A stretch of 64,000 nt of DNA from Bolinopsis microptera (GCF_026151205.1 NC_087073.1:10202636-10266635); one strand, 5' to 3'. Positions 12,376 to 49,524 are shown, numbered from the stretch's first letter. The notes: generated from the sequence alone by a model not told the origin. Program-made: numbers and translations.

Positions 12376-12397
12376 TTCACAAGTAGAATATCTTTGC

Positions 12398-15957: not shown

Positions 15958-16161
15958 TAAACTTTCCAGATAGTTACATGGCTATATATGAATATATGAA
16001 ACATTTGACATGGAGTTGTAGAGTGAGTTATGTGCCTCGCCGGGCTAAAGTAGTGGATGTCCTTGCTGTACGGCAAGTTAAACAAGGAACTGAAACTACT
16101 AGGTTCCGTACAGACTCAACTCTGCACCCATGTCAACATGTTCATTATATGCAAGCCTCTT

Positions 16162-20342: not shown

Positions 20343-20729
20343 GTGTTCGGTGTTTTATAACTCCCGACATGGCTGCACAACAGTCTCCCTTAAGAACACT
20401 TTCCACTGTTAATACAAATTATCATTTACGATCGTTGTTCTACCAATCTGCCTTAATAAATTTGTTCATGAATTCATACACTGTAAGTGTAGACTGTATT
20501 ATTAGTGCCGTACATTTGATTAGCAATTTACTGGGCATGCGACTTAATTGTGCCATGATGTTGATAGTTGCCAAATTTCGGTAACAAATTAGGACTTAAT
20601 TTGAGTTTACTGCACGCGCGATGAATAATTTGTGTTTATAGAGATCTGCGGCGCGTTATCAGGTTAACCAATGAAATCACGGCGTTTTTGTCACGTGACA
20701 GTCGACTGTAGAGTGATTAATTATCATCC

Positions 20730-20739
20730 AGGCATATGC
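20730..20739. repeat. target-site duplication AGGCATATGC of E copy 2 (partner at 13429-13438)
   Basis: See partner. Confidence 0.55.
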
Positions 20740-20937
20740 ACTCTTGTTATTTTCGCAGCTCTAATGAAAGCCACTACCATTCACACCATGGTTTGGTGAG
20801 TGACAGCTGCCCATCAATTTTGAAATCTGGGCCCAACTGGGATTCGAACTCGCAACATATCACAATGACCCCTAAATACTTACTTGAAAGCTATGCTTCA
20901 CGTTGGGAAGCTTTTTACTGGGCGGAGCTCCCGCCGA
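20740..20937 (+). repeat. segment X copy 2; E is inserted immediately to its left
   Basis: Direct repeat of 3785-3981. It is followed by gctcccgccg|aataacattc with no interruption, which is the empty site for the copy-1 insertion. Confidence 0.4.
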
Positions 20938-21716
20938 ATAACATTCTCAATTCAATAGCAATCAAATGTTTACAATTAAACCAAACTGTGCACAATTGTA
21001 ATGCGTGTGATATAGTTAAGAGACAAATACACGGTAAAGTAGGGTCAAGTAAAAATTATGACATCACATCATCATACATGTCTAAAAAATATCATCGCAT
21101 AAAATATAAAATAAATATTTCCCCACCAACATTAACTATTTACCAAATAAAATATTCTAAAAAAATTTATCAAAACATTATCCTATTTTAAAGATCTTAT
21201 CAAACTTCGCAGTGGAATACAAATTTATAAATTGCTTCTTTGCCACATGAGGACGAAACCAAACACAATCGTTATGTTTCTCTTTATTACTTAGATTGGA
21301 CAATAAGATTTTTTGAAACAGTGTATATATAAAAATAACCCTTCAAAAAATCAATATTTTGAAAATCACCCTCGACCCTGTTATGGGCTCCAAGTTCAAA
21401 TCTAAACTGTATATATTGACAGAGTTCTTACTTCTTACTCGCCCCTCTGTCTCCCTCTTTCTTACTGACATAACTGGCTGGGTAAATATTAAAAAATACG
21501 TGGTAGAGAAACAAAAAAAACCAATTTTTTTATTAATCATTCTGTAATCAAAAATTAATATTGTAAACAATAATAATGTAAGACAGAAAGATTTTAAAAA
21601 GATTATATATTTAAAAAAGATCCTGTCCTCATTTGAAGGTTCGATGGTTGTAGCGCAATGCACTACTGGGCCACGCCGCACATCAAATAATTGTTCTCGC
21701 AACCGGTATAATAGAT

Positions 21717-22216
21717 TTTACCAAAACCCATAATCATGGGTAGAGTGGACCGCTGTCAGTGTCTCTCTTTCCCAAACAAAAGGAAATGATATTACTTTGA
21801 ATGACCGTTATCAAATGCAAAATGATACCGAGAATGAAATCGGTCGCTCGCTTTTCCCATTCATTCACGGCTTACGAATTGTAATAAGTTTCGATTGATT
21901 ACATCAATCAGATGCTGTAAAAATCTCTTTGGGTTGCGTTCGGGTCGATACCTAGTATTTCGGGGTAAGGGTGGTAGTTATTAGTATTACTTATTGAATT
22001 AGCTGAAGTTTATTGAATCTTCATTGCCGAGTACAGCTGCCTTTGGGTAGTTCTTCTTAATCTATTACAATTGTAAATGAATGGGAAAAGCGAGCGACCG
22101 ATTTCATTCTCGGTATCATTTTGCATTTGAGAACGGTCAATCAAAGTAATATCATTTCCTTTTGTTTGGGAAAGAGAGACACTGACAGCGGTCCACTCTA
22201 CCCATGATTATGGGTT
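21717..22216. mobile_element. ~500-bp MITE with ~150-bp terminal inverted repeats, inserted into the Y copy of unit 2
   Basis: 21717-21868 (ttttaccaaaacccataatcatgggtagagtggaccgctgtcagtgtctc...) is the reverse complement of 22066-22216. It is absent from the corresponding site of unit 1 (12055, caaccggtatagatcggcg). Confidence 0.6.
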
Positions 22217-25200
22217 TTGGTAAAATATCATCTCTTTTTGATTATAATGTCAGGGTACTTTATAAAGTCGAAATATAAACTGATATCTTCATTAATAAGG
22301 AGGAAGTTTCAACGATTTCGAAATCTATCCTTTAAAAACATTTCCTTGTGTTTAGGGAAGCATATCGGTCGATCACAGACTGAATATGCCACTTAATACT
22401 CATTCAAGTTGGCATTAAATTCATATATAATGACATTAAACTGTCGTGGCAAAGCAGAATTTGTTGGAAATCACGAATGAGCAAAATTCTCACCTTTCGC
22501 ACGTGCAAACTTTGAGCAGACGTTGCGTGCGCATCCAATATTGAATAGCCGTAAATTTTTGCATGTAATTGTTTTATATATAGCTTGATAAGCATGCAAA
22601 GTTTCAAAGTATTTTAAGAAGAACTGTAATCACAACGGCACTCTAAAGTTGACAGAAAATGACGAAAACAGCAATTTTCAGTGATTTTAGCGATTTTCTA
22701 TCAATTTGGGCGTGTCCCAACGTGTGCAACTTTTCGATTTTCAACTTTAAAACTAGCCTATGACACAATTTATACCTATAGGAAGCAGAACTGAGCTCCA
22801 CAACCCAAGGCATGGCCCAACACCAGAGAATACTAAATCGCAAAATTGACGTTTTTATAAAATAATTCTTCAAAAAAGCACAAACTTCAATGACGAATAT
22901 TTTTATGAAGGAGCAAGCTAGAAAAACTTTCTGGTAGATTTTCAGAATGCTTGAACAATTATCTAAGATGAAAATTTCCTCAGATTTTGAATAAAATTAC
23001 TCCTTAATGGTTTAAAATTAATTTTAAAAGTTATTACTTTGTCAAAAATCAAATTTTAAAAACGGTTAACTTGATGACGTCATCAAGGGGTGTTTATGAC
23101 GTCATATAATTTTTTTATACAATGTAAACTAAAGTATAAACAATTATTTGCAAGACCTGTGGTCGGAAATGGCTGTATCTTTTACACTTTTGAATCTATG
23201 GACAATTAAATACAGGCTACAATTGACTGGCAAAGCGTCTATCCCTGAATATATATATATATGTATATATGTATCACGACAATCTATCGTAAAACAGGGG
23301 TTCTAGAAAACCCACTTCCCGATGCTCCTGAAACCTGAAACTTTTTTTGCAGTCGATTTGGTCAACGTCTAGACGCCCTGAAAAATTTCAGAGCTTTAAC
23401 TCAATTTTAACATGGTTTTTAAGGCACCTGAATATGGCGATTTTGGGTTTTTTACCGAATTTCGTATAACACCCTCGACCCTGTTATGGGCTCCAAGTTC
23501 AAATCTAAACTGTATATATTGACAGAGTTCTTACTTCTTACTCGCCCCTCTGTCTCCCTCTTTCTTACTGACATAACTGGCTGGGTAAATATTAAAAAAT
23601 ACGTGGTAGAGAAACAAAAAAAAACCAATTTTTTTATTAATCATTCTGTAATCAAAAATTAATATTGTAAACAATAATAATGTAAGACAGAAAGATTTTA
23701 AAAAGATTATATATTTAAAAAAGATCCTGTCCTCATTTGAAGGTTCGATGGTTGTAGCGCAATGCACTACTGGGCCACGCCGCACATCAAATAATTGTTC
23801 TCGCAACCGGTATAATAGATCGGCGAAATGCACATCGGGGAATTGGGCCTCGCCTTGTATCACGTCGTGACCCACATTGTCGTTTTACTAATACAGGGGA
23901 GCCGCGCACGAGGGTCATACAATGTGTGACAAATTTCGACAAGAAAGTGGCGCACTACTTTGAAAAAATTTAAACGAGTATCACCCGTCTTTACATACAA
24001 CATAGCCATGTGTTTACGCGTACTGCGTGACGTTGCTCTAACCATGAACCAGAGCCTCTCGCTTCATGTGAAACAAGCGCGTCACGCAGTACGCGTAGAC
24101 ACATGACTATGTGAATGCGTGACGCACTTGTTTCACAAGTAGAATATCTTTGCCGCCTTCGGCGGTCGCGCGCTACTGCAGGCGAGAGGGATCTGGTTAC
24201 AGCAATCACCCGTCAAAATTAATGATATGGCACAATATTTACAGTTTCAAAGGTTTTTTGTAGTTTACTATATTCTACTTGCTAGTCCATCTATATTATA
24301 ATTTAAAGTATTATGTTTGTTTGCACTTGCCATAATATTTCGAGAAGAAATCGGTGCGCGCTTCTTCGAAGAAATTTAGACGAGTAATATCTTGGAGGTC
24401 TTCGCCGCTTCGATGCGCCGCGCAAGCTAGCATTCTTGCTTCGCGTCGCAGAGCTACGATCTGGAAGGGTTGACATCGTCAATCAATGATCAAGTAACAT
24501 CTGTCAATAACGAGGGTTATTTTACACACATGCACGTGCAATCATTGTTGGAACGACGCGACATTTTCAACATAAGGAAGCAGCTTCGTTTTGAAATCCT
24601 AATAAGAACAACAGTGATTTCTTTACGGGGAGACATAGGTGCGATAAAAAACTTTATAACAAGTTCGGCCTAAAATTTGACCATTGTTAATGATCTGGCC
24701 CGGCGCGCGCTACTTCGTAGCACGTGCCATCGTTTCGAGAAGAAATTACTTTGAAGAAATTTAGACGAGTAACGTCCGTCAATCTAAAATATGTAAATAT
24801 TTTAGGTTTGATACCGTTAGTAATGTCAACTGTCATACGAATCACAAAATGGAATAAGGTTCAAGGGGATTAGCTCAACATAAGCTTCCGTAACAGTGTT
24901 TCCCAACCCATCCTAACAGCTATATAAAATTGGTTATACATTTGAGAAAGCAACACAATATTAAATAATACTGCATATGTTGCTCTAACCAGAGCCCTCT
25001 CGCTTGCAGTAGCGCGCGACCGCCGAAGGCATTACGCGTATACACATGGCTATGTGAACTGAATATGCATTGTCAAAAATATAAAATTAAAGGGGTGGTG
25101 GGGTGATCACAAAATGTGATGGTCCTGTAACCTGTTAAAGCTTAACGAATCTCAACATAAGTTGTAAGTGACATAGGAAGGTGACAAAGGGGTGTTAATG

Positions 25201-25865
25201 ACATGAAGGGCATTTAAAGTTACACCAGGTGAAATGATGGCTCAAAATAAGGTAGGACTTAAATTGGTGGGACGGAGCACTGGAATGAAAACCTTGATCC
25301 TCAGAATTGAAGAGTCCCCTTTCGCCTAGGGGACAACCTTTAATGTGAACCTAGCTTATCTAGGGATGCATGGTTATTTACTGGGCGATTTAAAAGTTCG
25401 AGGTCACCATTCACTTTTCGAATCATTCCAAAACTGTTACAAATGTTTCTGTAAAAAGTTTCTTAGAAGTTTCTTAAAGTGCAAGTATCAATGATGGATT
25501 CCTAGTTTTGGAGGCGAAGGGTGCCATGATCACCATTACATAGCACCCACAGCATAGTACCCACAGCTGCTCCCCTAGCATCTGTATTTTCTTCAGAGGA
25601 ATAGAGCAATTTTAATTTCCACATTTTCAGAATTAAATTAGAATCGTGTTTTGCACTCATTGCATATGGTTGACTGGTTTTTTAGATTAGCTTCTGTCGA
25701 GGTGCTTCATAAACGATTCCCTGTTCAATTTCGGACTATACACATCAACTTAGTGCAGAACTAAGCAAGTTATAGAACTATTTCATACGTATCAAATTGG
25801 ATGTGCTTTCGGTGGAGATATAGCATGCACCTTTTTAATTTATAATATTTGTGACGTTTTTTAAT

Positions 25866-25992
25866 TACCTTACTCGGGAATATTATGACTGGGATAAAGT
25901 GGTGGGTTTTGGAAAATTCCGCCATATTTTTCCGGGTCATTAATTTTTCCAGTCATAAATTAACCCGCTATAATGTTCCCTAGTAAGGTAAA
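25866..25992 (+). mobile_element. ~125-bp MITE, TIR TACCTTACTCGGGAATATTAT (family with further copies at 26017-26110, 58853-58965 and 59617-59731)
   Basis: It starts taccttactcgggaatattat and ends ataatgttccctagtaaggta. The flanks tta|...|taa suggest a TWA-like 3-bp target-site duplication. Confidence 0.5.
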
Positions 25993-26016
25993 CTAATAGT
26001 AATACATTTTGATGCT

Positions 26017-26110
26017 TGGTGGGTTTTGGAACATTCCGCCATATTTTTCCCGGTCATTAATTTCCCCAGTCATAAATTAACCCGCTATAATATTCCCGAG
26101 TAAGGTAGTT
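26017..26110 (+). mobile_element. partial second copy of the TACCTTACTCGGG MITE (5' TIR missing)
   Basis: ggtgggttttggaacattccgccatatttttcccggtcattaatttccccagtcataaattaacccgctataatattcccgagtaaggta. Confidence 0.45.
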
Positions 26111-26116
26111 GCCGAA

Positions 26117-26425
26117 CCTCTGCATCAGTGGCGTAACGAAAGGCCCTGCTGACCCCGCTGTGCAGGGGGGCGCCGTCTTAGGGGGGCGCCAAATCGTCGT
26201 TTGAATGTGGGACAATTTCGAAAACTTAACTAAAGTACTAGCAAAACTGCGCGTTTTGCTCTAGATACACACTTTTTTAGAGATTTTACCGGCGTATTCT
26301 TTAAAATCACCTAATTTGTTCAATTTTAGGGAGGGGCACCAAAAGGGGAGGGGGCGCCAACAGGGGGGCGCTTTTTTCGGCAGGGGGGCGCCAACAGGCA
26401 ACGTTACGCCACTGCTCTGCATCAC
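26117..26425. mobile_element. ~300-bp MITE-like element, TIR tgcatcAGTGGCGTAACG...CGTTACGCCACTgctctgca, GC-rich core with GGGGGGCGCC repeats; ~250 bp upstream of the TEP1 start
   Basis: Inverted termini read directly. The interior has four to five GGGGG(G)CGCC motifs. Confidence 0.45.
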
Positions 26426-26674
26426 CCTGTATGCTCTTGCTTACAATATTTGAGTAAGAATAAAACACAGGATGGGCTGTTGCCAGAATATCAACCATGT
26501 TATGACTTGACATTTAAAGTATGTAGCAGCTGCAACCCTGTTAAGTTTAATCTGAATTTTACTGATCTTTGTTTTACTTAACAATATCAATTAATAGTGT
26601 ATCAAATTCTTAATTAATTACTTCTATTTACTGTTAACATATTATCATTTTAACAGAAATATGACTTTCTCATA

Positions 26675-29600
26675 ATGTCGATAAAAAACCCTTTATTGGA
26701 GGGATACTCCTCACAAAAGAATGTTAAACTGCTGTCATCTTCCTCTTTAAAGAGTAGTGTCTTGAAGAGATCAAGTGACTTAACTGATGATCCCTTGCTT
26801 AAATCGTCAAAGTTACTTCGATCAAGTGTCCTTTCCTCACCATCACCATTGCTTCAATCTAGGCCTCTGACATCTGTTGGCTCGTCATACTTGTCAACAT
26901 GTACAACCACAAGCCAAAATCTTACCAGCTCTCTTATCACTACATCTGTATCCCTCTCTAACCCTTTGAGTGACTTGGGATCACAAAATGTGGCTGACAA
27001 GAATACCTCATTGAAGCCAAAACAAATGTTACAAGAAGAGGTAACAGACAGCAAAAGTGGAGAAAGAACTGACTTCTCTGAAATCTCCCCATTTCTAGAG
27101 GGGGAAGATATCATACCTATACCAGTGACTGAAAAAAGTAACGTTATCAACAATTACTTCAATACTATTTCCAAAGCTACTATCAAACTCACTGAAGAAG
27201 AAGTGCTCAAACAGGACTTTATCAATCTTGCTGCATGCTCTTTAATCAAAGCTCCTAAACTTGACAACAAAGATGACAATGTTAGGACCGGACTGATAAG
27301 TCTTGGAGAGAAGATCATTCTCATAGACCCTGAATTCATTTTAAAGATGGCACTCTTTACAAGAAAAGTTTTGAATATTCGGGTCACTGCCAATTTTCTA
27401 GTTGCTTTTGCTGCATTCAAGAAGGAATGTCGAAAATACATCAAGAAGTATTACCAAGAGACCGTTGTTCTACCCTCTGATTGGATTGATGTTGCTGAAC
27501 TGTATACATCTCTTGGAGACAAGAACATTGGATTCTCTGCTTTACCTGTCTGTTTGAGGAAAGCTATGACCAAAAAGTTTCCAAAGTTTGACACTTACCA
27601 GATAGGGAAGTACAACAAAAAGCCAAAGAAGAAAGCAGGTAAAAGCAATCCTGAAGAATCAGAGAATGAAGATGATGAAACAAAGCTTTATGAAAGGCAA
27701 CATTTTACATTGAAACAGCTGATTAGAAAGATACATATAAGTGATCCACCTGACATAGTCATGCCTGTTCTGGGAAAGAAATATCCTGAAACCCAGGAGC
27801 AGTTCTACCGCAGTAGGTTGTCGGGTTTGTGGGATGAAAGTCAGGCCGGCAAGAGAATGAAAGTACCCACACCGTACACATGGGAAACTCAACTAGCTGC
27901 AAAAGGGAACAATAGCGATACTTGGAAAGAGTTGATTCTTTCAAGAAAACTACCTTACATGGCAATGCTGAGGAACTTGAGGAACATTATTCAATCAGGA
28001 GTGAGAGATAACATCCATAAGATTGTCCAAAAGAAGTTGAGTTCCCCTGAAGATGTCAAGAGGAGTAAACAATTCCCATTTAGGTTTTTGAGTGCCTATG
28101 CTGTTCTAGATTCTTTAGAAAGTCAGCCTGGAAAGAGCATTTCTTGGTCGACCACTCCTGATTTTGAACAAGAAAAAATTCTTGACAGTTATAAGGCTTG
28201 CTTAGATAGAGCAGTTCAGCTTGCTGCCATCAATAATGTCAAACCTATCAAAGGCTCTTTGTTACTTATGTTTGATTGCAGTATCAAGATGGATGAGCAG
28301 TGCTCTGCCAAAGGATTGGGCCTTTCCCGGACGATAAGAGAAGTGGCTGGTTTGATGACCTTGATGTGTATGTTTTCTAGTGAGCACTGTGATGTTGTAT
28401 ACTACAATACCAATGGTACCACAAGAGGAGAAAAGATTGAAACTGGGGGAGAAATACTTAAGTTCCTATCTACCTTTGTTAAATTTTCAGAGGCAGCAAA
28501 TGAAAGACTTAATACTGGTACTCACATGTCCATCAGTGATTGTTGGGCTGAAATAACCAGTAAAGAAAGACACTACGATACAGTTATTCAAATCGCACCT
28601 AACTGTGATGATTTCGATTCATACACAAATCTGTATCGAGAAAAGGTAAACAGTGAAGTCCTTTATGTCAAAATGAACCTTAAATCAAAAACTACTGAGT
28701 TAAATGACATGATTTATATGGCTCATAGGAATGATGTAAGTCTTTCTGGTTTCAGTGATCAAATGTTACAATACATCTCCGAAAGAGGCTCTGGAGAGTT
28801 ATTGTCAAATGTTGAGTCCATCGATAAGAAGTTCAATCTTTTACCCCTACCAAGACTAATGGCCCAGAGCTATGTATCACCTCTGGCAACACAAGTAAAA
28901 TCAAGAGTTGTTCGGATATTTGTGTCTTCAACTTTTCTGGACCTTGAACATGACAGAAGGGAACTGATGAATGTCATCATGCCTCAAATTAAAAAATTGG
29001 CAATGGAAAAGAACTTCACTATCCAAGAGGTTGATTTAAGGTGGGGTGTTACAAAAGAAGAAGCATCTTCAAACAAAGTGATTCTTAGATGCCTTGAAGA
29101 AGTGTCTCGTTGTCATTATTTCTTGTGTATCCTTGGTGATCGATATGGAACCACATTTGATAGCTACCCATTGTCTCCGAATGCAGAATTCTCGTGGCTA
29201 CAGAATGAACAACCTGGTTTGAGCATGACTGAAATTGAAGTAACACATGCCTTGTTCTATTCTGACTCGACCAAGCTTCCTAAAAAGAACCAAATATTCT
29301 TAATCAGAGAAAATGGCAGTAACCGCGAAAGAAAAGTTGATCGACTAATTGACACAATAGAAAACTACTCCTTAGAAAGTGAGGAGCTATACATCAGAAG
29401 ATATCCAGCAGCTGACATCAGAGATATCGCACTTCAGGCTCTAAAGGAAGTTGTAGTGAAAGATATCTTAAATGACGACAGCAAAGATCTCTCCGACGAG
29501 GAGATGCACAATTCATATGTAGAACAACAGGCTCTTCTGTTTGTTGGAAGAGAGAAGCTGGCAAGTAGTTTGGTTAGTGCTATACAAAGAGGGCAGATTG

Positions 29601-31700
29601 TGATGGTTACTGGTCCAGTGGGCACAGGAAAATCTGCATTGACAGCAAAAGCCTTAACTATGTTCCCTGAGGAAAGTAGAAGGAACGATTTTCATCATGT
29701 TGTAAAACTCAATGCCAGCTCCAAAGACCTCAATATTCTGCTGAACAGATTATGCTTCCATTTATCCAAAATCCTGAACGAAGAACTGGAAGATCATTTC
29801 GAGCCCACCAGTACGCTGTGGGGTCAAATAGCTAAGTGTGAAACATCCTTCAAGATACTTATTGATGGCTGTGATGAGCTGCTCCAATCACATGACTTGT
29901 TTTCATGGCTGCCAGACAAGATTCCTAATAATATTACTCTGATTTTTACTGCAAGTTCCTCGGGGCAGTGGAGCACATACTTGAACAAGAAGTACTCATC
30001 CCTCAATACATTCAGTGTGTCGAAACTTTCTGCCAATGAAAAGGTTCAGGTTACTAAAGAAATGCTAGCTGCTTACGGTAAGAAGCTTGAGGAGAAGGGG
30101 TTCAACAGTCAACTGAGTCTACTTTTATCCAAAAGAGAAGCCAACAATCCTCTGTACATTGATCTTTGCATCAACCAACTTCGGCTTAATGCAATATTCG
30201 AGAATCTGACACAGTGTATCCAAGAGCTTCCCCAAACTACAGAGGAGCTGTATGTAAAAATACTTAAGTTCACTGTGCAAGAAGTCTATGTTGTTGGTGA
30301 CAAGCTCCTTGCTTATCTCTACTGCAGTAAGAATGGTATATCTGAGTCTGATATGCTTCATTTCCTTCAACTGAAGCCTCTAGCACTGGCCAGCCTACTG
30401 TATCATCTGAAGCTTTTTATCCACATCGACCAGAGCACCGGGATAATGTCCCTTGCCAATCAGTTTGCTAGGAAGGTAGTTCAAAGGAATTGTCTCAATG
30501 ACGAGAAGCTTGTTGATGTTCACAAGGAGTTAGCAGTGGAGTACTCCGTTTTGCTCGGAGGTTGTCACTACACATCTATCAGAAAGGACGCTTATCGGAG
30601 CATGCTGTTCCACTACACAGAGGCTGGAGAGTGGAGCACTGTTAGTGGATACCTCTCTGATATGAACTTTGTTCGTCAGATGATTTACTTAGGTTTACTT
30701 CCAGACCTCGTTTCCTTCTTTAATATTGATGTCGCTAAACTAAAAGGAGTTGCCAAGGCGTCATATAAGAATGCTATGAACAAAGATGGTATGAAGCGAT
30801 TGCAACAATTTCTCATTAACAACAAAACGATTCTTAGCAAAGAGCCATTTTTACTCCAGCAACGCTTGCTCCTTTGCGACGATTACTCTGAGGACAAGAT
30901 AGAAAACGATGATGACTTGATGTTCAACAGTTATGTTGGCTCCTTTAAGTCTCTCCAAGAAACCAAGCAAACGTACAAGTGCAACATGAATGAACACTTC
31001 AACAGTGTTGTTACTTGCTTGGCTGCTTCCGATGTCACTGAGATAGTATTGGTAGGCTTCCACGACAGTAAATTCCAAGCAATCAATTCGGCTGATTCCA
31101 CCATATCACAAACATATCGAGGGCACACCGGACCTATTACCTGCTGTGGTTTCCTAACTTCTTCCAGGTTCATATCTGCTGGCTCTGATGGTTCTCTGAG
31201 ACTTTGGAGCTTGTTAGACTCAGTGTGTCTTGCCAAGATAGTGCCACATATCTACCAGATCCAGGATATCCACGTTAACGAGGTCAGCAAGTGCGTGGTA
31301 TCCGCTGGTATCGACAGGAGAGTAACTGTGTGGCATAATGATGTCATATTCGATACAATAGAGTTTGAAAATCCCATGAACTGTATTAGATTTATTGAGA
31401 ATGGAAAGAAGTTTGTGGCTGGCTCGTGGACGGGTGAAGTCTATGCTTATGATTTGGTCCAGAAAGTAAAGATCACAGTGAAAAAAAGCGGAAAGGTTCA
31501 TAAAAACTCCATCCGGGCACTGTCTACTGGAAGGAAACATTTTGCTTCTCTCGATATCACTGGAGTTATATCCGTGTGGGATCAGATGACACTGGATGTT
31601 CTGCAATCAGTTCGCCTAAACAATGTCACTACTATATCGTATGACTTTAACGACCATCTCATGTACGGGCTGAGCAATGGTATCATAAATGTCACATCAG
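26675..31700 (+). CDS. TEP1: TEP1 ortholog exon 1 (telomerase protein component 1 / vault-associated TROVE-NACHT-WD40 protein). It covers the N-terminal Ser/Leu-rich repeats, the TROVE domain, DUF4062, the NACHT NTPase and the first WD40 repeats
   Basis: The 1711-aa ORF contains LPYMAMLRNLRNI (Ro60/TEP1 TROVE signature). It contains RIFVSSTFLDLEHDRRELMNVIMPQIKKLAMEKNFTIQEVDLRWGV...LGDRYG (DUF4062). It contains IVMVTGPVGTGKSALT (NACHT Walker A) and LLIDGCDEL (Walker B-like). It ends with WD-like repeats (GHTGPITCCGF..GSDGSLRLWSL). The donor aca tca g|gttttg lies at 31700/31701. Confidence 0.8.
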
Positions 31701-31768
31701 GTTTTGGTGATATGAGCACAGTTGGCATCCCTTCCTCTGAGCAGTTACCTCTCTGTACTGCTCTTCAG

Positions 31769-31956
31769 ATTCAGGACTCTATATCGGATACTACTCAGGA
31801 AAGGTTCTAAAGATACAGTCCGATAATGAAATCGACACATTGACCCCCCACAAAGGGAAGGTAAATCAGATCACTTCCTTTGAGATAGCAGGGACTGGGA
31901 AGTGGAGCGAAACAACTGAATTTGTTGCATCTTGCTCAGACGATGGAACAGTTCAT
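31769..31956 (+). CDS. TEP1: TEP1 exon 2 (WD40)
   Basis: Acceptor ctcttcag|at, 68-nt intron. Translation DSGLYIGYYSGKVLKIQSDNEIDTLTPHKGKVNQITSFEIAGTGKWSETTEFVASCSDDGTVH, then gtaagt. Confidence 0.65.
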
Positions 31957-32126
31957 GTAAGTTCTAGAAATTAAATTCTTTGTTCGATGTCTGTAATATT
32001 TTTGATTAATAGAGAACGATGTCGTGTTCAATACCAACGTCTGAATTGCGCATAATCTTAAAATTTATAATCATGATTTCTTTTATAGTTATTATAATCT
32101 GATTTTTATTTATTTATTGATTTTAG

Positions 32127-32348
32127 GTTCATTCCATACACGGTGACAACGCACTAGAAAATGAACTGACCCCACATATTGGGAAGATTCTAGCACTCTG
32201 CCCCGGAGCTACTGGAGTTATGTTCTCTGGAGGTTACGACTGTGCTATAACCGCCATGAAGTTTGAGAAGGACAATCAGTCCAAATACCTCACAGTACAG
32301 GAGGTCAAGTTACACGGACATACAGCTCCTGTTTCCACGCTTCTCACG
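32127..32348 (+). CDS. TEP1: TEP1 exon 3 (WD40)
   Basis: ttttag|gttcat ... VHSIHGDNALENELTPHIGKILALCPGATGVMFSGGYDCAITAMKFEKDNQSKYLTVQEVKLHGHTAPVSTLLT |gtatga. Confidence 0.6.
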
Positions 32349-32542
32349 GTATGAGCTGATTGTTAGTTTCGGCGTGTTACCTTTAAATACTATTGACATC
32401 ACCGTGAACATAATTTTACAAATACATAAAATCCAATCTGCCTCATATCGAGCTATGTACACTGTACAAGCTGTATAAGCTGTCCGTCTGCTATTATCAT
32501 CAATCCAAATCTGAATGAGTTTAACATTTCACTCCCCCTTAG

Positions 32543-32759
32543 TTGAAAGAGGGTGACAGACTGATCTCAGGTTCTCATGATGGCAGTGTGAAGTTGTGGA
32601 ACAAAGCAGGAACATGTGTGTTCACTGCCAGTAACGCTCACAGAGACTGGGTCACGTGCTCAGCAGCAGCTGGTGGTAGCGCTCAGGTCTTCGTTACTGG
32701 TTCTAATGATAACCTGGTCATTCTGTGGAAACTGGAGAATTCTAGAATTTACCATACTC
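32543..32759 (+). CDS. TEP1: TEP1 exon 4 (WD40)
   Basis: cccttag|ttgaaa ... LKEGDRLISGSHDGSVKLWNKAGTCVFTASNAHRDWVTCSAAAGGSAQVFVTGSNDNLVILWKLENSRIYHT |gtgagt. Confidence 0.6.
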
Positions 32760-33098
32760 GTGAGTGTTCATTACTTTGCACATAATATCTAACCGTAGGA
32801 TGGCTATTGGTTGATGCACTGTTATTTCATGTGGTTAGATTGTGCGTTGGCCGTTGCTTGAACCATAAATATCTAATAAATCTGTGAAATGATACTAACA
32901 TCTATTCATGGTAATATATTTTATCTAATTACAACACTACAAATCTATTACATTTATTGAGTATAATGTAACAGGATGGAAGTGTTTTTACCAGGTTCGC
33001 ACTCCATAGTATGTAGAATTTGGTTCAATTCTAGATGAAAAGCTCTAATATTCATTATTCATGAATCATGAAATTCCCAACATGGTTATCTTATTTCA

Positions 33099-33190
33099 GA
33101 CAAGTTCCTTGGGCACACTTCTCCTGTAACCTGTGTCAGTGTACTTGGTAACGAGACGACTCCTATCCAAATGATCATTGGTGGAGCTCA
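33099..33190 (+). CDS. TEP1: TEP1 exon 5 (WD40)
   Basis: tatttcag|ac ... HKFLGHTSPVTCVSVLGNETTPIQMIIGGAQ |gtaaga. Confidence 0.55.
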
Positions 33191-33577
33191 GGTAAGATCA
33201 TATTTGGATGATTCTAGTCACGTACAAGATTTGCGTATTTGTAATATTATGTTTAATGCATCAAATTGATAATACAACCATTACGTATTTGATGATCGAT
33301 CATAAAAACAGAAATAAGTCTCTGAATATATTTTTGTCTCCTCTTTTTGCGTCAGTTAAATTGTAGTATTGTCCATCTGGCATCATGAGCTTTAGCAGGC
33401 GATCACAGACGAGTACTCAGCACACCACATTCAAAACGTTATAGAATAAGCGACGCTACAAACTCCACTCAACATATCAGTGCGAATGCCTGACGCCTGA
33501 CAAGTCTAGAAGTTTTGCTATGTACAAGTCTAGAAGTACAAGTCTAGAAGTTTTGCTAACGGTAGTCATATCCTCAG

Positions 33578-33691
33578 GACGGAACGCTTGTACTCTGGAA
33601 CAAAGATGGCAAGTTCGTGTCCTCTACAAAACCTGCTGAACGTGGAGTTAACGCCTGTACATTCTTACCTGGGTCCTTCAGCAGCCCTACT
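33578..33691 (+). CDS. TEP1: TEP1 exon 6 (WD40)
   Basis: tcctcag|gac ... DGTLVLWNKDGKFVSSTKPAERGVNACTFLPGSFSSPT |gtgagt. Confidence 0.55.
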
Positions 33692-34217
33692 GTGAGTTAA
33701 CTAATAACTTTCTTATCTACTTACTCAAATGATAATGATCCTTTATTAATAAAAGAACAATTTACTGTACTGAATTGTATTTTCTGATCTATTTTAATGC
33801 GAAAAACCCGATCCCTGTAATTTCACTATTATAGAGAAATTAAATGAACTTAAAAAGAGTTATTATGTGAATCAGACATAAAACTCTTTGTTATAATCTC
33901 ACAACTTTGAAATCTTACCCGATAACATGAACATGTTTTCTTATCAAATTATGCGTTCGATAATGCGGGACCTAATATTAAATGTTTAAAGCTTTGCAGA
34001 CCAGGTACTCGATAATGCGACCTAATATTAAATGTTTAAAGCTTTGCAGATCAGGTTCCAATATTTTCATATTGAATTTGCAATGTTACATTTAAATCCA
34101 AAATAACAGTATGGTCGTTCACATTAATTGCTTGAATTACCGAACTTACAAAAAGTTCTCGAATGCGTGTTTAGTTTTATATCACACTGATTTAAGAACA
34201 TAAACTACCCCAAACAG

Positions 34218-34428
34218 GCTTACATCGGGACAGTTGACGGTGAAGTGAAATCAATGAAGCCCTCAAAACTTGGCATAATAACAAGCTTCACACACCACAC
34301 AGCGCTAGTGAGAAGTGTGAGAGGTATGAGCGGGAACAGCGTGGTCTCAATATCAGCTGATAATACCGTACAGAGCTGGAGCTGGGAGAGGGGAGCTGTT
34401 ACTACCACCAAACTTCAGAGCATTGCAG
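34218..34428 (+). CDS. TEP1: TEP1 exon 7 (WD40)
   Basis: caaacag|gct ... AYIGTVDGEVKSMKPSKLGIITSFTHHTALVRSVRGMSGNSVVSISADNTVQSWSWERGAVTTTKLQSIA |gtactg. Confidence 0.55.
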
Positions 34429-34632
34429 GTACTGGCTATTTATTAGTTTACTTCAGAGCATTGCATGTACTGGCCATTTATTAGTTTACTCTATTTACGC
34501 TTAAAAAAGAACATCTAAAGATATGACGTGATACCCACCGTTCTGTTCATTATAATATTGTGATCGTTTCTATAACTATTACCGTGGTTGTTTGAGTCAT
34601 CAATCAAGGAATAAACCAATAATCAATTGCAG

Positions 34633-34836
34633 ATATAAAATACAAAGTTGACGCGGTTGATGCCAACGGTTCCCATTCGTTCCGGATCGGAGTGGTGGAC
34701 AAGACAGGTAGCATTGCTCGCTGGAAACAACAGGATGATGTTATGTGCTTTGACTCTGAAACTGAGGGCCCAAAGAAACTCATGGCTTTTGCGTTAATAC
34801 CCCCAGCAGCAGACGGAAAACAGGCTAGATTACACG
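34633..34836 (+). CDS. TEP1: TEP1 exon 8
   Basis: caattgcag|at ... DIKYKVDAVDANGSHSFRIGVVDKTGSIARWKQQDDVMCFDSETEGPKKLMAFALIPPAADGKQARLH |gtacta. Confidence 0.5.
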
Positions 34837-34992
34837 GTACTAAAAGCGTTGATTTTTCTAATTTCAGGATTCGTTGAATTTTTCGTTGAATGAAACAAAA
34901 ATCATGTGCGTTCAACTTTCTTAGAAGTTTTAGGATAAGATTAAGATGTCTTTAGGTACAAATACTAAGACTATAATATAATATAATTTCAG

Positions 34993-35139
34993 TTCCAGAA
35001 CCTCCTACTGGAGTCTTGAGGTGTTTGGCATCCCACAATTTTATTGTTGAGATATTCTCCGAAAACAGGAGAGTTTACCTCAGAGTTTACTCTACTGATT
35101 CTCCCGAGGTTTACATGAAAGAGATTCTGACAGACGCAA
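34993..35139 (+). CDS. TEP1: TEP1 exon 9
   Basis: aatttcag|tt ... VPEPPTGVLRCLASHNFIVEIFSENRRVYLRVYSTDSPEVYMKEILTDA |gtgagt. Confidence 0.5.
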
Positions 35140-35440
35140 GTGAGTTCAAAATTACCAACGCTTTGAATCAGACACATTATCTCGATTTTGTTGATTTGTT
35201 CAGCTTACTATTAATTTAACATATTGTACATAATATTCAACTTGAATATATTATACAAGTAAATATATATACTATTATATAGTAATAGTATAAACAACCA
35301 TGTTGAATATATAACATGTATAATAATATGTATAATAATATGTTTAATATATATTATAATATGCAACATGGTTAAATATAGTATAAATATAGTATAAATA
35401 CTATAATATTATTATAAAATAAATATTTATCTTGTTTCAG

Positions 35441-35589
35441 GTATTATAACGTATGCTGAGCTGACTGAGGACGATATCTTTGTGCTTGGAAGTGTATCAA
35501 GTTTCATGCATGTTTGGAACCTGAAAACAAAGAAGCGAATGCCTTCTTCCAGTATTCGTGCGTCCATGAATGGAAGAAATATTAAAGAG
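35441..35589 (+). CDS. TEP1: TEP1 exon 10
   Basis: cttgtttcag|gt ... SIITYAELTEDDIFVLGSVSSFMHVWNLKTKKRMPSSSIRASMNGRNIKE |gtattt. Confidence 0.5.
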
Positions 35590-35829
35590 GTATTTAAGGT
35601 CGCATTTAATGAACGAGTTTATTATATAGTGATAAATGACGAAGTATAATAATATAATAATATGTATATTATAGTGATAATTGACGAAGTATAATAATAA
35701 TATAATAATATGTATATTTGAGGAATCTTAATCCTCCTCGCATCCGTTAGTCTCTCTTGTATCAAATATTGGGCCACAATTATATAATCATAAATCTGAG
35801 ACTAGAACCCTCAATCTGGTACATTTCAG

Positions 35830-35893
35830 AGATTCTTGTATCTGACTTCTGCTGCTTACTACGATGGCAAGAACGTCATGGGATTGGTGACAG
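35830..35893 (+). CDS. TEP1: TEP1 exon 11
   Basis: acatttcag|aga ... RFLYLTSAAYYDGKNVMGLVT |gttaat. The phase is consistent with exon 12. Confidence 0.45.
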
Positions 35894-36000
35894 GTTAATT
35901 TAGCATCCATTTAAATTTCCCCTTCATACTTAAACTTTCCTTAACACTGTTCTTAGTTTGTCCTTTAATGTTTGAGAACTGTTCTAAAGCAGAGGAAACT

Positions 36001-36520
36001 GTGCCCCAAGTGTGCCCCAAGTGTGCCCCAAGTGTGCCCCAAGTGTGCCCCAAGTGTGCCCCAAGTGTGCCCCAAGTGTGCCCCAGCTGTGTCCCAGCTG
36101 TGTCCCAGCTGTTTTCCCCGCCTATGCCCCAAGTGTGCCCCAAGTAACTTTTTGCCCCAAGTGTGCCCCAGGAATTTCAATTTTGTGCCCCAAGTGTGCC
36201 TAGCTAGATTACCAAGTGTGCCCCAAGTGTGCCCCAGCTGTGTCCCAACTGTTTTCCCCGCCTATGCCCCAAGTGTGCCCCAAGTTACTTTTTGCCTCAA
36301 GTGTGCCCCAAGAATTTTAATTTTGTGCCCCAAGTGTGCCTAGCTAGATTACCAAGTGTGCCCCAAGTGTGCCCCAGCTGTGTCCCATCGGTTTTCCCCG
36401 CCTATGCCCCAAGTGTGCCCCAAGTAACTTTTTGCCTCAAGTGTGCCCCAAGAATTTCAATTTTGTGCCCAAATTGTGCCCCAAGAATTTCAATTTTGTG
36501 CCCAAAGTGTGCCTAGCTGG
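36001..36520. repeat. intronic minisatellite: 11-bp (GTGCCCCAAGT)n, then ~120-bp higher-order units (gtgccccagctgtgtccca...ccccgcctatgccccaagtgtgccccaagtaactttttgcc.caagtgtgccccaagaatttcaattttgtgccccaagtgtgcctagctagattaccaa)
   Basis: Direct reading. It produces the spurious Cys/Pro-rich ORFs 35972-36343, 36012-36203 and 36229-36516 and antisense ORFs. It lies in the TEP1 intron between exons 11 and 12. Confidence 0.85.
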
Positions 36521-36678
36521 ATTACCAAATTCCCTAACTTGTTGATAATAACCTTATCTCTGTACACAATGTAACTTGTTGATAATAACCTTATCTCTGT
36601 ACACTGTGTAACTTGTTGATAATAACCTTATCTCTGTACACTGTGTAACTTGTTGATTATAACCTTATCTCTGTACAG

Positions 36679-36821
36679 GTCACATCATAGTACCTAACAA
36701 GAAAAAGAGTCTAGAGATAGTGGAGCGGGTGTTCAACTCGGCTGTAACAGCTATGGAGTGTGTTACAGACAAGGGGGGTAACTTGGTCATATTCGCGGGG
36801 AGCAAGGACGGTATTATCAAG
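36679..36821 (+). CDS. TEP1: TEP1 exon 12
   Basis: ctctgtacag|gtcac ... GHIIVPNKKKSLEIVERVFNSAVTAMECVTDKGGNLVIFAGSKDGIIK |gtaagg. It is preceded by four copies of a 37-bp repeat, each offering ctctgtacac/g. Confidence 0.5.
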
Positions 36822-37071
36822 GTAAGGGTTACAAATAATAATATTACAAATAATTAGCATAAGTAATGAGTATAAGTAATGAGTATAAATATTTGTAGAT
36901 CTAATATTACTTATTAGATCATAATAAAATGATCCAATATCTTATAGTAAAACCTTATCATAGTATTATAAGCCATTATAAGTACCCCTAAAATAATTAT
37001 GACACTGTATCCTAATCAATAGTTAATTAACGTACCTTTAAACTCTCTTTCTAAACATCTGTCTACCCCAG

Positions 37072-37257
37072 GTGTTAACAGCTGACCTGAAGGTGATGGG
37101 AATGTACCACACAAACGGTCCTGTCACCGTCCTCCGTGTTCTACGCCACCCTAACCGCCGAACCTACGACAAGGTGCCCGTTGTGGCTGGAGACAAGTGT
37201 GGCTGTGTCCACTTCCTTAAGTGGTACCCTCCCAAACGTAGCGTGGAGCTCAACTAG
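37072..37257 (+). CDS. TEP1: TEP1 terminal exon 13 with stop
   Basis: ctaccccag|gtg ... VLTADLKVMGMYHTNGPVTVLRVLRHPNRRTYDKVPVVAGDKCGCVHFLKWYPPKRSVELN*. This equals ORF-track 37072..37257. Confidence 0.6.
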   Translation: MLTADLKVMGMYHTNGPVTVLRVLRHPNRRTYDKVPVVAGDKCGCVHFLKWYPPKRSVELN

Positions 37258-40612: not shown

Positions 40613-43555
40613 TTGTTGTTTGAGTTGCTTTTTTTCATAGTTTCATTCATTGGACAGTACTCTCCTTTGGATGAAATGCTGGAATCGTGCCAGGTTTCAG
40701 ACACAGCGATTCGAATACATCAACGGACTCCGTATTTACCATCTCCAATAAAAAGTGAGCATGATGACATACCAGCAGAATGTACGGAGTTTAAAGAACA
40801 AATTGACAGTTGCTATGAGGAAATTGTACACTGGAAAAAGAATATTTTTGAGCCCCCAACATGTAAGATAGGGAGGGAATTTGTAAAGGAATTATCTACG
40901 TGGCTTGAACATTTTAATATAGGATCAGTTTATTAGTGTTCATCAATCAAAACATTTATTGTCCTTCCTGCTCTGCTTCTGCAAAAGCCATCCGCAAAAA
41001 GTAAAAAAGCTGAACATAAAGTCCTGTTGAAAAAACGGTTAGAATTATGGAGGCAGGGGAATATTTCTGCACTTATGAGGGAAGCAAGAACTATACAACG
41101 ACAACTAGCGAGGAGCTCTCGGAAGCAAGAAAAGGATTGTGCGAGAAAATTTGCCAACCTCATGTTTGAAGGGAAAGTCAGCTCTGCGGTGCGCATGTTG
41201 TGTGATAACGATAACAAAGGAATACTAGAAATGTCTACAGAGACTATGGACCAGCTATTGAAGAAGCATCCAGAACCAATGCCTATAGTGGAGAATAGTT
41301 TACTTTTTGGACCGATCGAGGAAATAGAAGAATCGTTGTTTTATAATATAGACGAGACAATGGTATTTAGGGCGGCAAAATTTACTAACGGTTCTGCTGG
41401 ACCATCACAAACTGATGCTGATTTTTTTAGATTCATTTTGACGCATAAGAATTTTAAAGAAGAGGGAAAGAAACTGAGAGATGAGATTGCTAAGTTTGCA
41501 AGGTTGATCGCGTCAAAACCGTATAATCCTGATCTGTTGGACTCCTACGTTAACAGTAGACTCATCCCGCTTAACAAGTGCCCAGGGGTGAGGCCAATAG
41601 GAATAGGGGAAACTTTTAGACGAATAGTGGGAAAATGTTTGAGTTGGGAATTGAAAACAGCGATCCAAGTTGCTGCTGGACCACTGCAGGTTTGTACAGG
41701 ACTAAAAAGTGGATCGGAAGCGGCAGTACATTACATGCGGGAGCAATTCGAAACAGAATCTGCAGAAGCAGTGATTTTAGTTGACGCCAGTAACGCTTTT
41801 AATTCTGTTAACAGACAAGCTCTCTTACACAACGTGAGAGTACTATGCCCGGAGTTGAGCATGATTGCAATCAACATGTACCGGAAACCATGCCGGCTAT
41901 TTGTTGGGGGAGCTGAAATCCCGAGTCGGGAGGGTACAACCCAGGGCGATAACCTGGCAATGTCGCTTTTTGCCATTGCAACTCTACCAGTACTACGGAA
42001 ATTAGAAGATCACGAAAAAGTGGCACAAGTATGGTTAGCAGATGACGCCACAGGAGTGGGTACTCTTCACGCACTTTTAGGATGGTGGAAAGATATCATT
42101 GAAGAAGGACTTAAGTATGGCTACTTCGTGAACCAGGAGAAATCTTGCTTGATCCTGAAAAATCCCGAACATTTACATACAGCTCAGGAAATATTTTCCG
42201 ATTGCAATATAGATATCAGAATAGATGGTCAAAGGCATTTAGGAGCTGTGCTGGGGACGCCTGAATTCAAGGATACCTACATTAACAACCTTGTATGTGA
42301 GTGGAGTGATATGCTAAAAAAGTTAGTACAGTTTGCCAAATCACAGCCTCAGGCAGCCTACGCTTGTTTTACGCACGGTGTCCGCCACAAATTTACATAT
42401 TTTATGAGGACACTAGATATCAGCTCTTATATGGGCCCTCTTGACAAAATAATCACTCATGAGCTTATTCCAACTATATTTGGTTGTCCAGTATCTCCTA
42501 TACACCGAGAGCTTATGTCATTACCATTAAAGAACGGAGGTATGGGAATGCCACAGTTGGAGTATCTAGCGAAAAGAGAACATGCTGCATCGCTTTTGGT
42601 AACCCGGGGACTGGTAAATTCCATGAAAGGAAAATCTCTTGCTACAACTGACACGGAATCGAGAGATGAGCTTCAAGATATGTTAAAACAGCGTGTTTTG
42701 GAATATAAAGAACAACAAGAGGAGATACTTAAAAAGGTTGACAAGAAGACTGCAAGGATTTTGGAGCAGATTAGCGAACCAGGGAGCTCAAATTGGCTCT
42801 CATGTCTACCACTAAGAAAACATGGTTTCGTTCTAAATAAATCTGAATTTAGGGATTCTATCAGATTGCGATACAACTTAGATCTGGATCGTTTACCTTC
42901 ACACTGTCCATGTGGAAAAACGTTTGATGTGAACCATTCTCTAAATTGCCATCTTGGTGGCTACATCATTATCAGACACAACGAAATTAGGGATTTTTTA
43001 AGAGGCTTGTTGAAGACGGTTTGCTCGGACGTGGAAGTTGAACCTCAGCTTCAAGAACTAGAAGGAGAGCAGTTCACGAGGTCTTCGACACTTACGGGTG
43101 ACCAGGCGAGACCGGATATAAAAGCTCGTGGTTTCTATAGGGCAGGCCAAGTGGCTTTTTTCGATGTTAAGGTAATTAATCCTAATTCTAATTCCTACCT
43201 TCAACATTCGACAAAGAAAGTCATGGAGAATGCCGAGAAACAGAAATCCAGATGTTACAACGAAAGGATTTTAAATGTAGAGCACGGATCATTTGCTCCA
43301 TTAATCTACTCAGTGACGGGTGGCATGGGACCGCAGGCTAAGACGTTCGAGAAACTACTATGCAATAAACTTGCATATAAACAAAAACAGAATTACAACG
43401 ATATTATTAATTATTATCGGTGTAAGTTATCTTTTTTAATTAGAAAAATGATTTTATTATGTATAAGAGGATCTAGAAAAACCTCAAATAGAACTGTAGA
43501 ATTATCTAACATGGATGATTTAGAATTTAACTCTTTCGAATCGAAAGTTAATTAA
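40613..43555 (+). mobile_element. RLE-type (R2-superfamily-like) non-LTR retrotransposon. It has a reverse transcriptase plus a CCHC zinc knuckle plus a restriction-like endonuclease, and no APE domain. The N-terminal region is probably 5' truncated. The reading frame is broken by one in-frame TAG at 40934
   Basis: ORF 40613..40936 and ORF 41027..43555 are in the same frame (both = 2 mod 3) and are separated by one stop. Reverse-transcriptase motifs RPIGIGE, ILVDASNAFNSVNR, QGDNLAMSLFAI and LADDATGV are present. The C-terminus has HCPCGKTFDVNHSLNC, RHNEIRDFL, RPDIKA and FFDVKV. An AT/TAA-rich tail (43770-43850) is a possible 3' end. Confidence 0.7.
41027..43555 (+). CDS. LINE pol (reverse transcriptase + CCHC + restriction-like endonuclease)
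   Basis: 842-aa ORF; the motifs are listed in the mobile-element entry. Confidence 0.75.
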   Translation: MKKRLELWRQGNISALMREARTIQRQLARSSRKQEKDCARKFANLMFEGKVSSAVRMLCDNDNKGILEMSTETMDQLLKKHPEPMPIVENSLLFGPIEEIEESLFYNIDETMVFRAAKFTNGSAGPSQTDADFFRFILTHKNFKEEGKKLRDEIAKFARLIASKPYNPDLLDSYVNSRLIPLNKCPGVRPIGIGETFRRIVGKCLSWELKTAIQVAAGPLQVCTGLKSGSEAAVHYMREQFETESAEAVILVDASNAFNSVNRQALLHNVRVLCPELSMIAINMYRKPCRLFVGGAEIPSREGTTQGDNLAMSLFAIATLPVLRKLEDHEKVAQVWLADDATGVGTLHALLGWWKDIIEEGLKYGYFVNQEKSCLILKNPEHLHTAQEIFSDCNIDIRIDGQRHLGAVLGTPEFKDTYINNLVCEWSDMLKKLVQFAKSQPQAAYACFTHGVRHKFTYFMRTLDISSYMGPLDKIITHELIPTIFGCPVSPIHRELMSLPLKNGGMGMPQLEYLAKREHAASLLVTRGLVNSMKGKSLATTDTESRDELQDMLKQRVLEYKEQQEEILKKVDKKTARILEQISEPGSSNWLSCLPLRKHGFVLNKSEFRDSIRLRYNLDLDRLPSHCPCGKTFDVNHSLNCHLGGYIIIRHNEIRDFLRGLLKTVCSDVEVEPQLQELEGEQFTRSSTLTGDQARPDIKARGFYRAGQVAFFDVKVINPNSNSYLQHSTKKVMENAEKQKSRCYNERILNVEHGSFAPLIYSVTGGMGPQAKTFEKLLCNKLAYKQKQNYNDIINYYRCKLSFLIRKMILLCIRGSRKTSNRTVELSNMDDLEFNSFESKVN

Positions 43556-49123: not shown

Positions 49124-49380
49124 ACAAACTCTACAAACTCTACAAACTCTCCAAACTCTACAAACTCTACAAACTCTACAAACTCTACAAACTCTACAAA
49201 TTCTACAAACTCTACAAACTCTACAAACTCTACAAACTCTACAAACTCTACAAACTCTACGTACTCTACAAACTCTACGTACTCTACAAACTCTACAAAC
49301 TCTACAAACTCTACAAACTCTACAAACTCTACAAATTCTACAAACTCTACAAACTCTAAAAACTCTACAAACTCTACAAA
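49124..49380. repeat. 9-bp minisatellite (CTACAAACT)n, ~28 units with a few variants (ctacgtact, ctacaaatt)
   Basis: Direct reading. It produces the spurious [15 protein letters not shown] and LQTLQT ORFs. Confidence 0.95.
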
Positions 49381-49524
49381 GGACACCCTTTTTGAGGTGA
49401 GGAAAGTTACGGACTTGTTACATCTTCTTAGGGCCTATCGTGATATCATGGATCGCTTAGGTTCCACCAGGATCTAGTAGTCCTCATATAAATTCTGCGT
49501 CATCTTCTGTCTAATGGACGTCTA

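Follow-up and report, generated by a model that had tools for sequence, protein, structure and literature searches.

A predicted single-copy TEP1 ortholog in the ctenophore Bolinopsis microptera retains the NADase residue set and carries a one-nucleotide frameshift in the assembled sequence

Introduction

Does the ctenophore Bolinopsis microptera encode an ortholog of TEP1 (telomerase/vault-associated protein 1), and if so, is the gene intact? The question is raised by a locus on the plus strand of a 64-kb stretch of its genome (GCF_026151205.1, NC_087073.1:10202636-10266635; hereafter the window, with all coordinates counted from its first letter), in which an earlier note had recognized a complete TEP1 gene of 13 exons and about 2320 residues. 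We find that positions 26656-37257 (+) very probably represent a single-copy TEP1 gene of a lobate ctenophore close to Mnemiopsis, with 12 coding exons and an mRNA that is trans-spliced to a spliced leader (SL), and that the encoded product, once a single missing G is restored, would be a 2343-aa STAND protein.

Identity of the locus

The ATG-initiated open reading frame (ORF) at 26675-31810 (+) encodes 1711 aa, and this exon-1 product was used as the query in a search of 5.8 billion proteins. It matched the Mnemiopsis leidyi hypothetical protein ACHWQZ_G011221 (P0003; 2378 aa, NCBI), with 81% identity over exon 1, and ctenophore ORFs formed a graded series of matches at 53-97% identity. Matches carrying the name telomerase protein component 1 came from Branchiostoma (amphioxus), sea urchins including Strongylocentrotus, Lingula (a brachiopod), nemerteans, and molluscs at approximately 30% identity (E values of 1e-190 to 1e-230), those of amphioxus, sea urchin, brachiopod, and molluscs (E values of 1e-190 to 1e-213) covering 66-91% of the query. 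The exact 1711-aa product had no entry in a collection of 15 billion proteins. When P0003 was aligned with sea-urchin TEP1, the two proteins were colinear over the approximately 1,350 residues shown, from TROVE via the TIR-like domain and NACHT into the first WD40 repeats, with a stated BLAST span of 1,955 columns; this alignment begins with LKQDFINLAA (P0003 aa 182), and the same motif is found at aa 178-187 of the window protein. Among solved structures matched by the exon-1 product, the sole non-WD40 entry was 11gz_A, "Telomerase protein component 1," at the DUF4062 region.

With respect to copy number, tblastn of the repaired protein against the 64-kb window detected no second TEP1-like sequence outside 26675-37257, and related assemblies contain one intact TEP1 locus per haplotig. 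All sequence-level defining features of TEP1 that were tested were found, with the exception of an uninterrupted frame in this assembly. Altogether, sequence comparison assigns the locus 26675-37257 (+) to TEP1, as the earlier note had proposed; the Pfam domain order described below and the colinear similarity to named metazoan TEP1s, an alignment the note had suggested as a check, both bear out its call. The predicted protein is a straightforward ortholog of a widely conserved, known protein, and its Mnemiopsis counterpart is already in NCBI, where it is not named TEP1.

An apparent TEP1-like fragment at 2791-3501 was discarded; it derived from the L002 query, and tblastn with the repaired protein finds nothing there.

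Gene model and transcript

The exon structure was established with a 7099-nt (7.1-kb) Logan contig from run SRR26381704 (L001), a spliced transcript from a near-identical animal (98.9% nucleotide identity) that encodes P0004, a product with 99% identity to the window protein. L001 aligned with the window in 12 colinear blocks at 98-100% identity block by block, the first of which spans 26655-31958 at 98.9%, and the exon junctions were refined by positional matching to P0004. All 11 introns are of the GT-AG type and measure 156-785 nt; of the 654 C-terminal residues, 649 are identical to P0004. The same 12 exon blocks were recovered with the Mnemiopsis protein P0003 and in the sister-genome locus L003 (350-kb contig). 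The coding exons are as follows.

26675-31956 (+): coding exon 1, 5282 nt; Ser/Leu-rich N-terminus, TROVE, vWA-like domain, TIR-like NADase domain, NACHT, helical region, and first beta-propeller; donor GTAAGT at 31957
32127-32348 (+): exon 2, WD40; L001 99.1% identical, GT-AG junctions
32543-32759 (+): exon 3, WD40; L001 and P0004
33100-33191 (+): exon 4, WD40; L001 and P0004
33578-33691 (+): exon 5, WD40; L001 and P0004
34218-34428 (+): exon 6, WD40; L001 and P0004
34633-34836 (+): exon 7, WD40; L001 and P0004
34993-35139 (+): exon 8, WD40; L001 and P0004
35441-35589 (+): exon 9, WD40; L001 and P0004
35830-35893 (+): exon 10, WD40; L001 and P0004
36679-36821 (+): exon 11, WD40; L001 and P0004
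37072-37257 (+): exon 12, TEP1 C-terminal propeller blade and TAG stop; L001 and P0004; Pfam Beta-prop_TEP1_C 66.8 bits, cut-off 32

The 1711-aa ORF, a first exon of about 5 kb (here approximately 5.3 kb), and the end of the coding sequence (CDS) at 37257 all agree with what had been noted before. The 13 exons of that model are replaced by the 12 coding exons given by L001, with exon 1 reaching 31956; its introns are indeed short, but the smallest of them, of 68 bp, is exonic in L001. The intron-1 donor is read through by seven of seven ctenophore genomic ORFs (1730-1813 aa), each ending after SCSDDGT[VI]HV, and because these seven ORFs end via the same donor, the 5.3-kb first exon is conserved across the phylum.

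At the 5' end, the first 21 nt of L001, CTATATAACAAATAATTTGAG, are absent from the window. This leader closely resembles the spliced leader of Hormiphora at its 3' end (...AAACAAATTAATTTGAG / ...CTTTAAACAAATTAATTTGAG), which is present on more than half of the mRNAs of that ctenophore (PMC8527503).

26656-26674 (+): 5' untranslated region (UTR), 19 nt; L001 matches the window from ~26655, with the trans-splice acceptor AG at 26654-26655

Because the 21-nt leader is not in the window, the junction falls at this AG, and the leader is like that of Hormiphora, the TEP1 mRNA appears to be SL trans-spliced 19 nt upstream of the ATG, as judged from one contig (L001). The 19-nt 5' UTR contains a 4-codon upstream ORF (ATGACTTTCTCATAA).

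Domain architecture

Pfam searches recovered TROVE, DUF4062, NACHT, and WD40 in the order that the earlier note had given, together with the two motifs it had cited, LPYMAMLRNLRNI in TROVE (aa 426-438, 27950-27988) and GPVGTGKS in NACHT; its list lacked the vWA-like DUF5920 found between TROVE and DUF4062.

27206-28129 (+): TROVE, ~aa 178-485, possibly to ~aa 560; Pfam PF05731, 2e-83, 281 bits, cut-off 23
28364-28903 (+): DUF5920, vWA-like, aa 564-743; Pfam PF19334, 1.2e-11, 45.1 bits, cut-off 27; at the position of TROVE's vWA partner in TEP1
28913-29479 (+): DUF4062/TeTIR/NIR, TIR-like NADase domain, aa 747 to ~935; Pfam PF13271, 1e-14, aa 747-855
29597-30073 (+): NACHT NTPase, aa 975-1133; Pfam PF05729, 31.8 bits, cut-off 26.7

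The pairing of TROVE with VWA has been described (10.64898/2026.09.21.753143). Within NACHT, the Walker A motif GPVGTGKS lies at 29612-29635 (aa 980-987) and the Walker B motif ILIDGCDE at 29855-29878 (aa 1061-1068). In the exon-1 product, Pfam places the start of the WD40 repeats at ~aa 1430, and the TEP1-specific family Beta-prop_TEP1_C was matched at 66.8-74.4 bits (cut-off 32) with the repaired protein or its C-terminal part.

Ser makes up 21% and Leu 15% of the first 190 residues, which contain five L[LK]xS[SV] motifs. The Ser/Leu-rich character that had been ascribed to this region is thus present, but the repeats proposed there match no Pfam repeat family, the vertebrate TEP1_N 30-aa repeat included, in aa 1-190 at E<=0.01. 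TEP1_N repeats are vertebrate-specific and do not define the wider TEP1 family.

Residues of the TIR-like NADase domain

Papers of 2026 established DUF4062 as a TIR-like NADase, which goes by the names Swarozyc TIR-like, TeTIR, and NIR (10.64898/2026.05.01.722283, 10.64898/2026.09.21.753143, 10.64898/2026.09.04.749371). Work of the same year showed that TEP1, a relative of bacterial anti-phage effectors, is active as a TIR-like NADase within vault particles. The DUF4062 domain of the window protein aligned without gaps to the human TEP1 domain 11gz_A (E = 4e-22), with E855 opposite E1008, and the TIR-like, flavodoxin-type fold looked for in this domain was found. Also present are F749, S752, R761, R789-W790-G791, C806, and R823, which together with E855 are equivalent to human F902, S905, R914, R942-W943, C959, R976, and E1008; F902, R914, R942, C959, and R976 are also required in human TEP1 (10.64898/2026.09.21.753143). 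The equivalent of human R908, a less critical residue, is Leu here.

Across 30 aligned metazoan TEP1s, the NADase residue set does not vary. Altogether, the predicted ctenophore protein has kept every residue that the NADase activity of human TEP1 requires. The TEP1 domains of a sponge and of Dictyostelium are active NADases (10.64898/2026.09.21.753143), bacterial defence systems, Avs among them, use related domains as effectors, and NIR/TeTIR proteins were reported in 88% of surveyed metazoan proteomes (10.64898/2026.09.04.749371).

The frameshift in exon 1 and its possible explanations

It is the lack of one G at 31739, relative to L001, that ends the 1711-aa ORF at 31810, so that the gene previously described as complete has a 1-nt frameshift in its first exon.

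31738-31740 (+): 1-nt deletion site; window CCTCT-GAGCAG versus transcript CCTCTGGAGCAG (gapped alignment)

After the deletion, 23 out-of-frame residues are followed by a stop at 31808-31810. With the G restored, the CDS is 7032 nt and the protein 2343 aa, instead of the approximately 2320 aa stated earlier. Ten sequences are in frame at this site, namely, three genomic ORFs of the closest relative (P0001, P0121, and P0123), P0002, P0005, P0006, P0009, P0010, the Mnemiopsis protein P0003, and the transcript product P0004. The 1.96 kb of coding sequence downstream of 31739 has no further stops, and all of its intron sites are GT-AG. Compared to L001, the ratio of nonsynonymous to synonymous substitution rates (dN/dS, omega) is 0.146 upstream of the site and 0.105 downstream, with an overall omega of 0.13; compared to the sister genome, it is 0.096 (~0.10). 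At its position 1000 (window 27635), L001 has one extra A, AAAGAAAAAAAGCAGG versus AAAGAAGAAAGCAGG in the window, by which its ORF is split into 322-aa and 1981-aa products. This indel, seen in another data set, is the second of 1 nt in the gene and is independent of that at 31739.

The missing G at 31739 is probably, if by no means certainly, an assembly or sequencing indel. Error is favored because the downstream CDS is intact, its constraint equals that of the upstream part, and the nearby 7.3-kb palindrome (described below) is artefact-like. We consider it rather unlikely, while giving it appreciable weight, that the deletion is real and TEP1 is truncated on the sequenced haplotype. The product of this allele would consist of 1688 native and 23 out-of-frame residues and end where blade 7 of propeller 1 begins. 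Such a product would keep TROVE, vWA, the TIR-like domain, NACHT, and six propeller-1 blades and lose the remaining WD40 repeats, making it a null or deregulated allele. The deletion site is a GG dinucleotide with no long homopolymer, and ctenophore genomes are known for high heterozygosity, indels included (PMC8527503), both of which fit a real allele; moreover, the different 1-nt insertion that splits the ORF of L001, in the A-run at window 27635, would agree with broken alleles segregating in the species. However, the downstream part of the gene is intact (11 GT-AG introns, no more stops, dN/dS of 0.105), all ten related sequences noted above are in frame at the site, the palindrome in the same assembly region, 99.89% identical with gaps only, suggests assembly artefacts, and the L001 indel sits in an A7 run, which is a typical site of technical error. 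That both frameshifts are real, with truncating TEP1 alleles segregating in this ctenophore species, is improbable; if true, full-length TEP1 would be dispensable, or a TROVE-TIR-NACHT product without most of the WD40 sensor would be tolerated or used.

The frame could also be restored by splicing. The 13 exons and about 2320 aa of the earlier note would follow if a 68-nt intron (31701-31768 or 31707-31774) were removed from exon 1, and GT..AG pairs exactly 68 nt apart do exist and reopen the frame; the value of 2320 aa is reproduced by (7031-68)/3-1 = 2320. We give this model scarcely any credence, since L001 is colinear through 31701-31774 with the single G as its sole gap, placing the stretch in an exon, and the splice would remove 22-23 residues, GFGDMSTVGIPSSGAVTSLYCS, whose conservation is clear among the ctenophore orthologs nearest to the window and lower in the most distant ones. 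Both candidate donors (GTTTTG and GTGATA) are weak, and the 11 verified introns measure 156-785 nt. The 68-bp intron appears to be a device bridging the frameshift. Hardly more credible is a decaying pseudogene with a functional TEP1 elsewhere in the genome: the window frameshift and the independent one in the transcript are what such decay would leave, but the locus is transcribed, spliced, and trans-spliced, strong purifying selection is evident from omega values of 0.13 versus the transcript and ~0.10 versus the sister genome, no second TEP1-like sequence is found in the window, and related assemblies have one intact locus per haplotig.

The interpretation that we prefer, a TEP1 gene with a G missing through assembly or sequencing error, has several observations weighing against it. 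An uninterrupted reading frame was not found in the window TEP1, so the full-length protein is not encoded by this exact sequence. The NACHT score barely exceeds the Pfam cut-off (31.8 versus 26.7 bits), and Beta-prop_TEP1_2nd, at 85.8 bits on the full protein, falls just below its cut-off of 89, scoring 92.4 on the C-terminal part alone. The WD40-like blades, approximately 21 and in line with the previous figure of about 20, were counted by eye; this number would correspond to three propellers of seven blades each. Neither vault RNA nor Y RNA, nor any other relevant Rfam family, was detected in the 64-kb window by Rfam gathering-threshold and E<=1 scans, and the literature search found no mention of MVP in Mnemiopsis or of vaults in ctenophores. 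Functional roles proposed for ctenophore TEP1 would rest on the proteins of other organisms.

Repeats and other features of the window

Two tandem-repeat arrays lie in intron 10 of TEP1.

36000-36513 (no strand): minisatellite, intron 10; Tandem Repeats Finder (TRF), 11-nt unit TGTGCCCCAAG, 140-nt higher-order repeat
36535-36677 (no strand): 37-nt tandem repeat, 3.9 copies, intron 10; TRF, abutting the exon-11 acceptor

A minisatellite of about 520 bp had been reported between exons 11 and 12; the array is real, but it sits between exons 10 and 11, in intron 10, because the transcript model has 12 exons, not 13. In the sister locus L003 (19700-20850), the 11-nt array is not found, and the 37-mer family has grown to ~1.1 kb. 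From these two loci, TEP1 intron 10 is a site of tandem-repeat turnover.

The GC-rich miniature inverted-repeat transposable element (MITE) that had been placed about 250 bp upstream of the ATG was recovered as a MITE-like element with terminal inverted repeats, its 3' end being 261 nt upstream of the TEP1 ATG.

26126-26414 (no strand): MITE-like element, 289 nt; perfect 13-nt terminal inverted repeats CAGTGGCGTAACG; ends 56-64% GC

The element has a single full copy within the window, and no target-site duplication was identified. Its homolog in L002 and L003 (sister genome) lies at another position in the opposite orientation, which fits a mobile element. One-mismatch copies of its terminal repeat (CAGTGGCGTAACA) at 5936-5948 (-) and 18762-18774 (+), inside the palindrome arms, may be remnants of related elements. 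A repeat of ~105-117 nt is present as two tandem copies at 25865-26108, just upstream of the MITE-like element, and as two reverse copies at 58855-58960 and 59630-59733.

Upstream of TEP1, a 7.3-kb inverted repeat forms a palindrome with arms at 3978-11267 and 13438-20733, which are 99.89% identical with 0 mismatches and gaps in a microsatellite only. Its 2.2-kb spacer (11268-13437) recurs rightward in direct orientation at 94-98% identity, with related copies at 20927-25013. In the sister genome, the orthologous region upstream of TEP1 lacks approximately 19 kb of this structure. The palindrome arose either by a very recent inverted duplication or as a foldback artefact of the assembly. The arms contain 12-nt microsatellites (8618-9327 and 15246-15955) that translate as (TL)n, giving spurious ORFs of 265 and 267 aa, and cause spikes in GC skew (+0.29 and -0.30); at 4292-5544 and 19166-20418 there is a 119-nt satellite.

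Elsewhere in the window, a retroelement ORF at 41027-43555 (+) encodes 842 aa with a reverse-transcriptase domain (RVT_1, 1.4e-9), and a 361-aa ORF at 1143-2228 (+) resembles its C-terminal part. Downstream of TEP1 and on the same strand are candidate exons of a DENN-domain gene at 59879-60436 (+) (DENN, 1.6e-12) and 62595-63500 (+), the latter ORF having no Pfam match and probably belonging to the same gene. An (NST)n-translating microsatellite at 49067-49477 (+) accounts for a spurious 136-aa ORF. No tRNA genes were found in the 64-kb window.

Discussion

The window protein shares with human and other vertebrate TEP1 the order TROVE, vWA-like domain, DUF4062 (TeTIR/NIR), NACHT, helical region, and WD40 propellers, and with the human protein the equivalents of the NADase residues, both Walker motifs, and the TEP1-specific C-terminal propeller family. 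It differs from vertebrate TEP1 in having a Ser/Leu-rich, low-complexity N-terminus instead of a detectable TEP1_N 30-aa repeat and Leu in place of human R908, and its gene differs in the 5.3-kb first exon, the total of just 12 coding exons, and the SL trans-spliced mRNA. Compared to other invertebrate TEP1s, with which identity is approximately 30%, the protein is shorter, at 2343 aa versus ~2,540-2,890 aa among the named ones. Mnemiopsis P0003 is a direct ortholog with the same 12 exon blocks, is annotated as hypothetical, and has an intact frame at the site of the window's deletion; a figure of the Mnemiopsis immune repertoire draws a NACHT/WD40/DUF4062 architecture (PMC11797021).

Among animal TeTIR-NACHT-repeat proteins (NWD1, NWD2, and NPHP3), the NWD proteins share the TeTIR-NACHT-WD40 core but lack TROVE, whereas Ro60 shares the TROVE-vWA RNA-binding module but lacks the STAND part. 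TROVE-vWA and STAND are combined solely in TEP1, as they are in the window protein. Bacterial DUF4062 NADases (Swarozyc, Avs-NIR, Vulcan/Vesta, and Evangelion) have the TIR-like DUF4062 with the catalytic Glu, often fused to a STAND NTPase, and their activation is thought to proceed via oligomerisation. In contrast to the ctenophore protein, they have no RNA-binding TROVE/vWA extension, and their sensors are directed at phage proteins; for the ctenophore gene, an immune role would be conjecture. The analogy to prokaryotic immune sensors drawn in the earlier note fits in that the DUF4062-NACHT pairing is now linked to bacterial immune NADases.

The mechanism of the ctenophore protein would most likely be that of TEP1, with RNA binding, vault association, and catalysis extrapolated from its counterparts in human, sponge, and Dictyostelium. 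The TROVE/vWA module, for which RNA binding and vault tethering of TEP1 are documented (PMC2193651), may bind a small pol III RNA (vault RNA) and anchor the protein within vault particles. The NACHT-WD40 part would serve as a nucleotide-dependent oligomerisation switch or sensor, and the TIR-like DUF4062 as an NADase activated by oligomerisation.

Useful results are a corrected gene model of 12 exons, a frameshift now flagged, and the conservation of the NADase catalytic set in ctenophores. Left unflagged, the 1-nt frameshift would be converted by annotation pipelines to a fake intron or a truncated protein. All other animals may have ctenophores as their sister group, and a predicted ctenophore ortholog with every catalytic residue kept confirms that the full TROVE-vWA-TIR-NACHT-WD40 architecture existed at the base of animals, as the proteins of sponge and Dictyostelium had already implied. 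NADase testing in this lineage may also make use of the ortholog's sequence.

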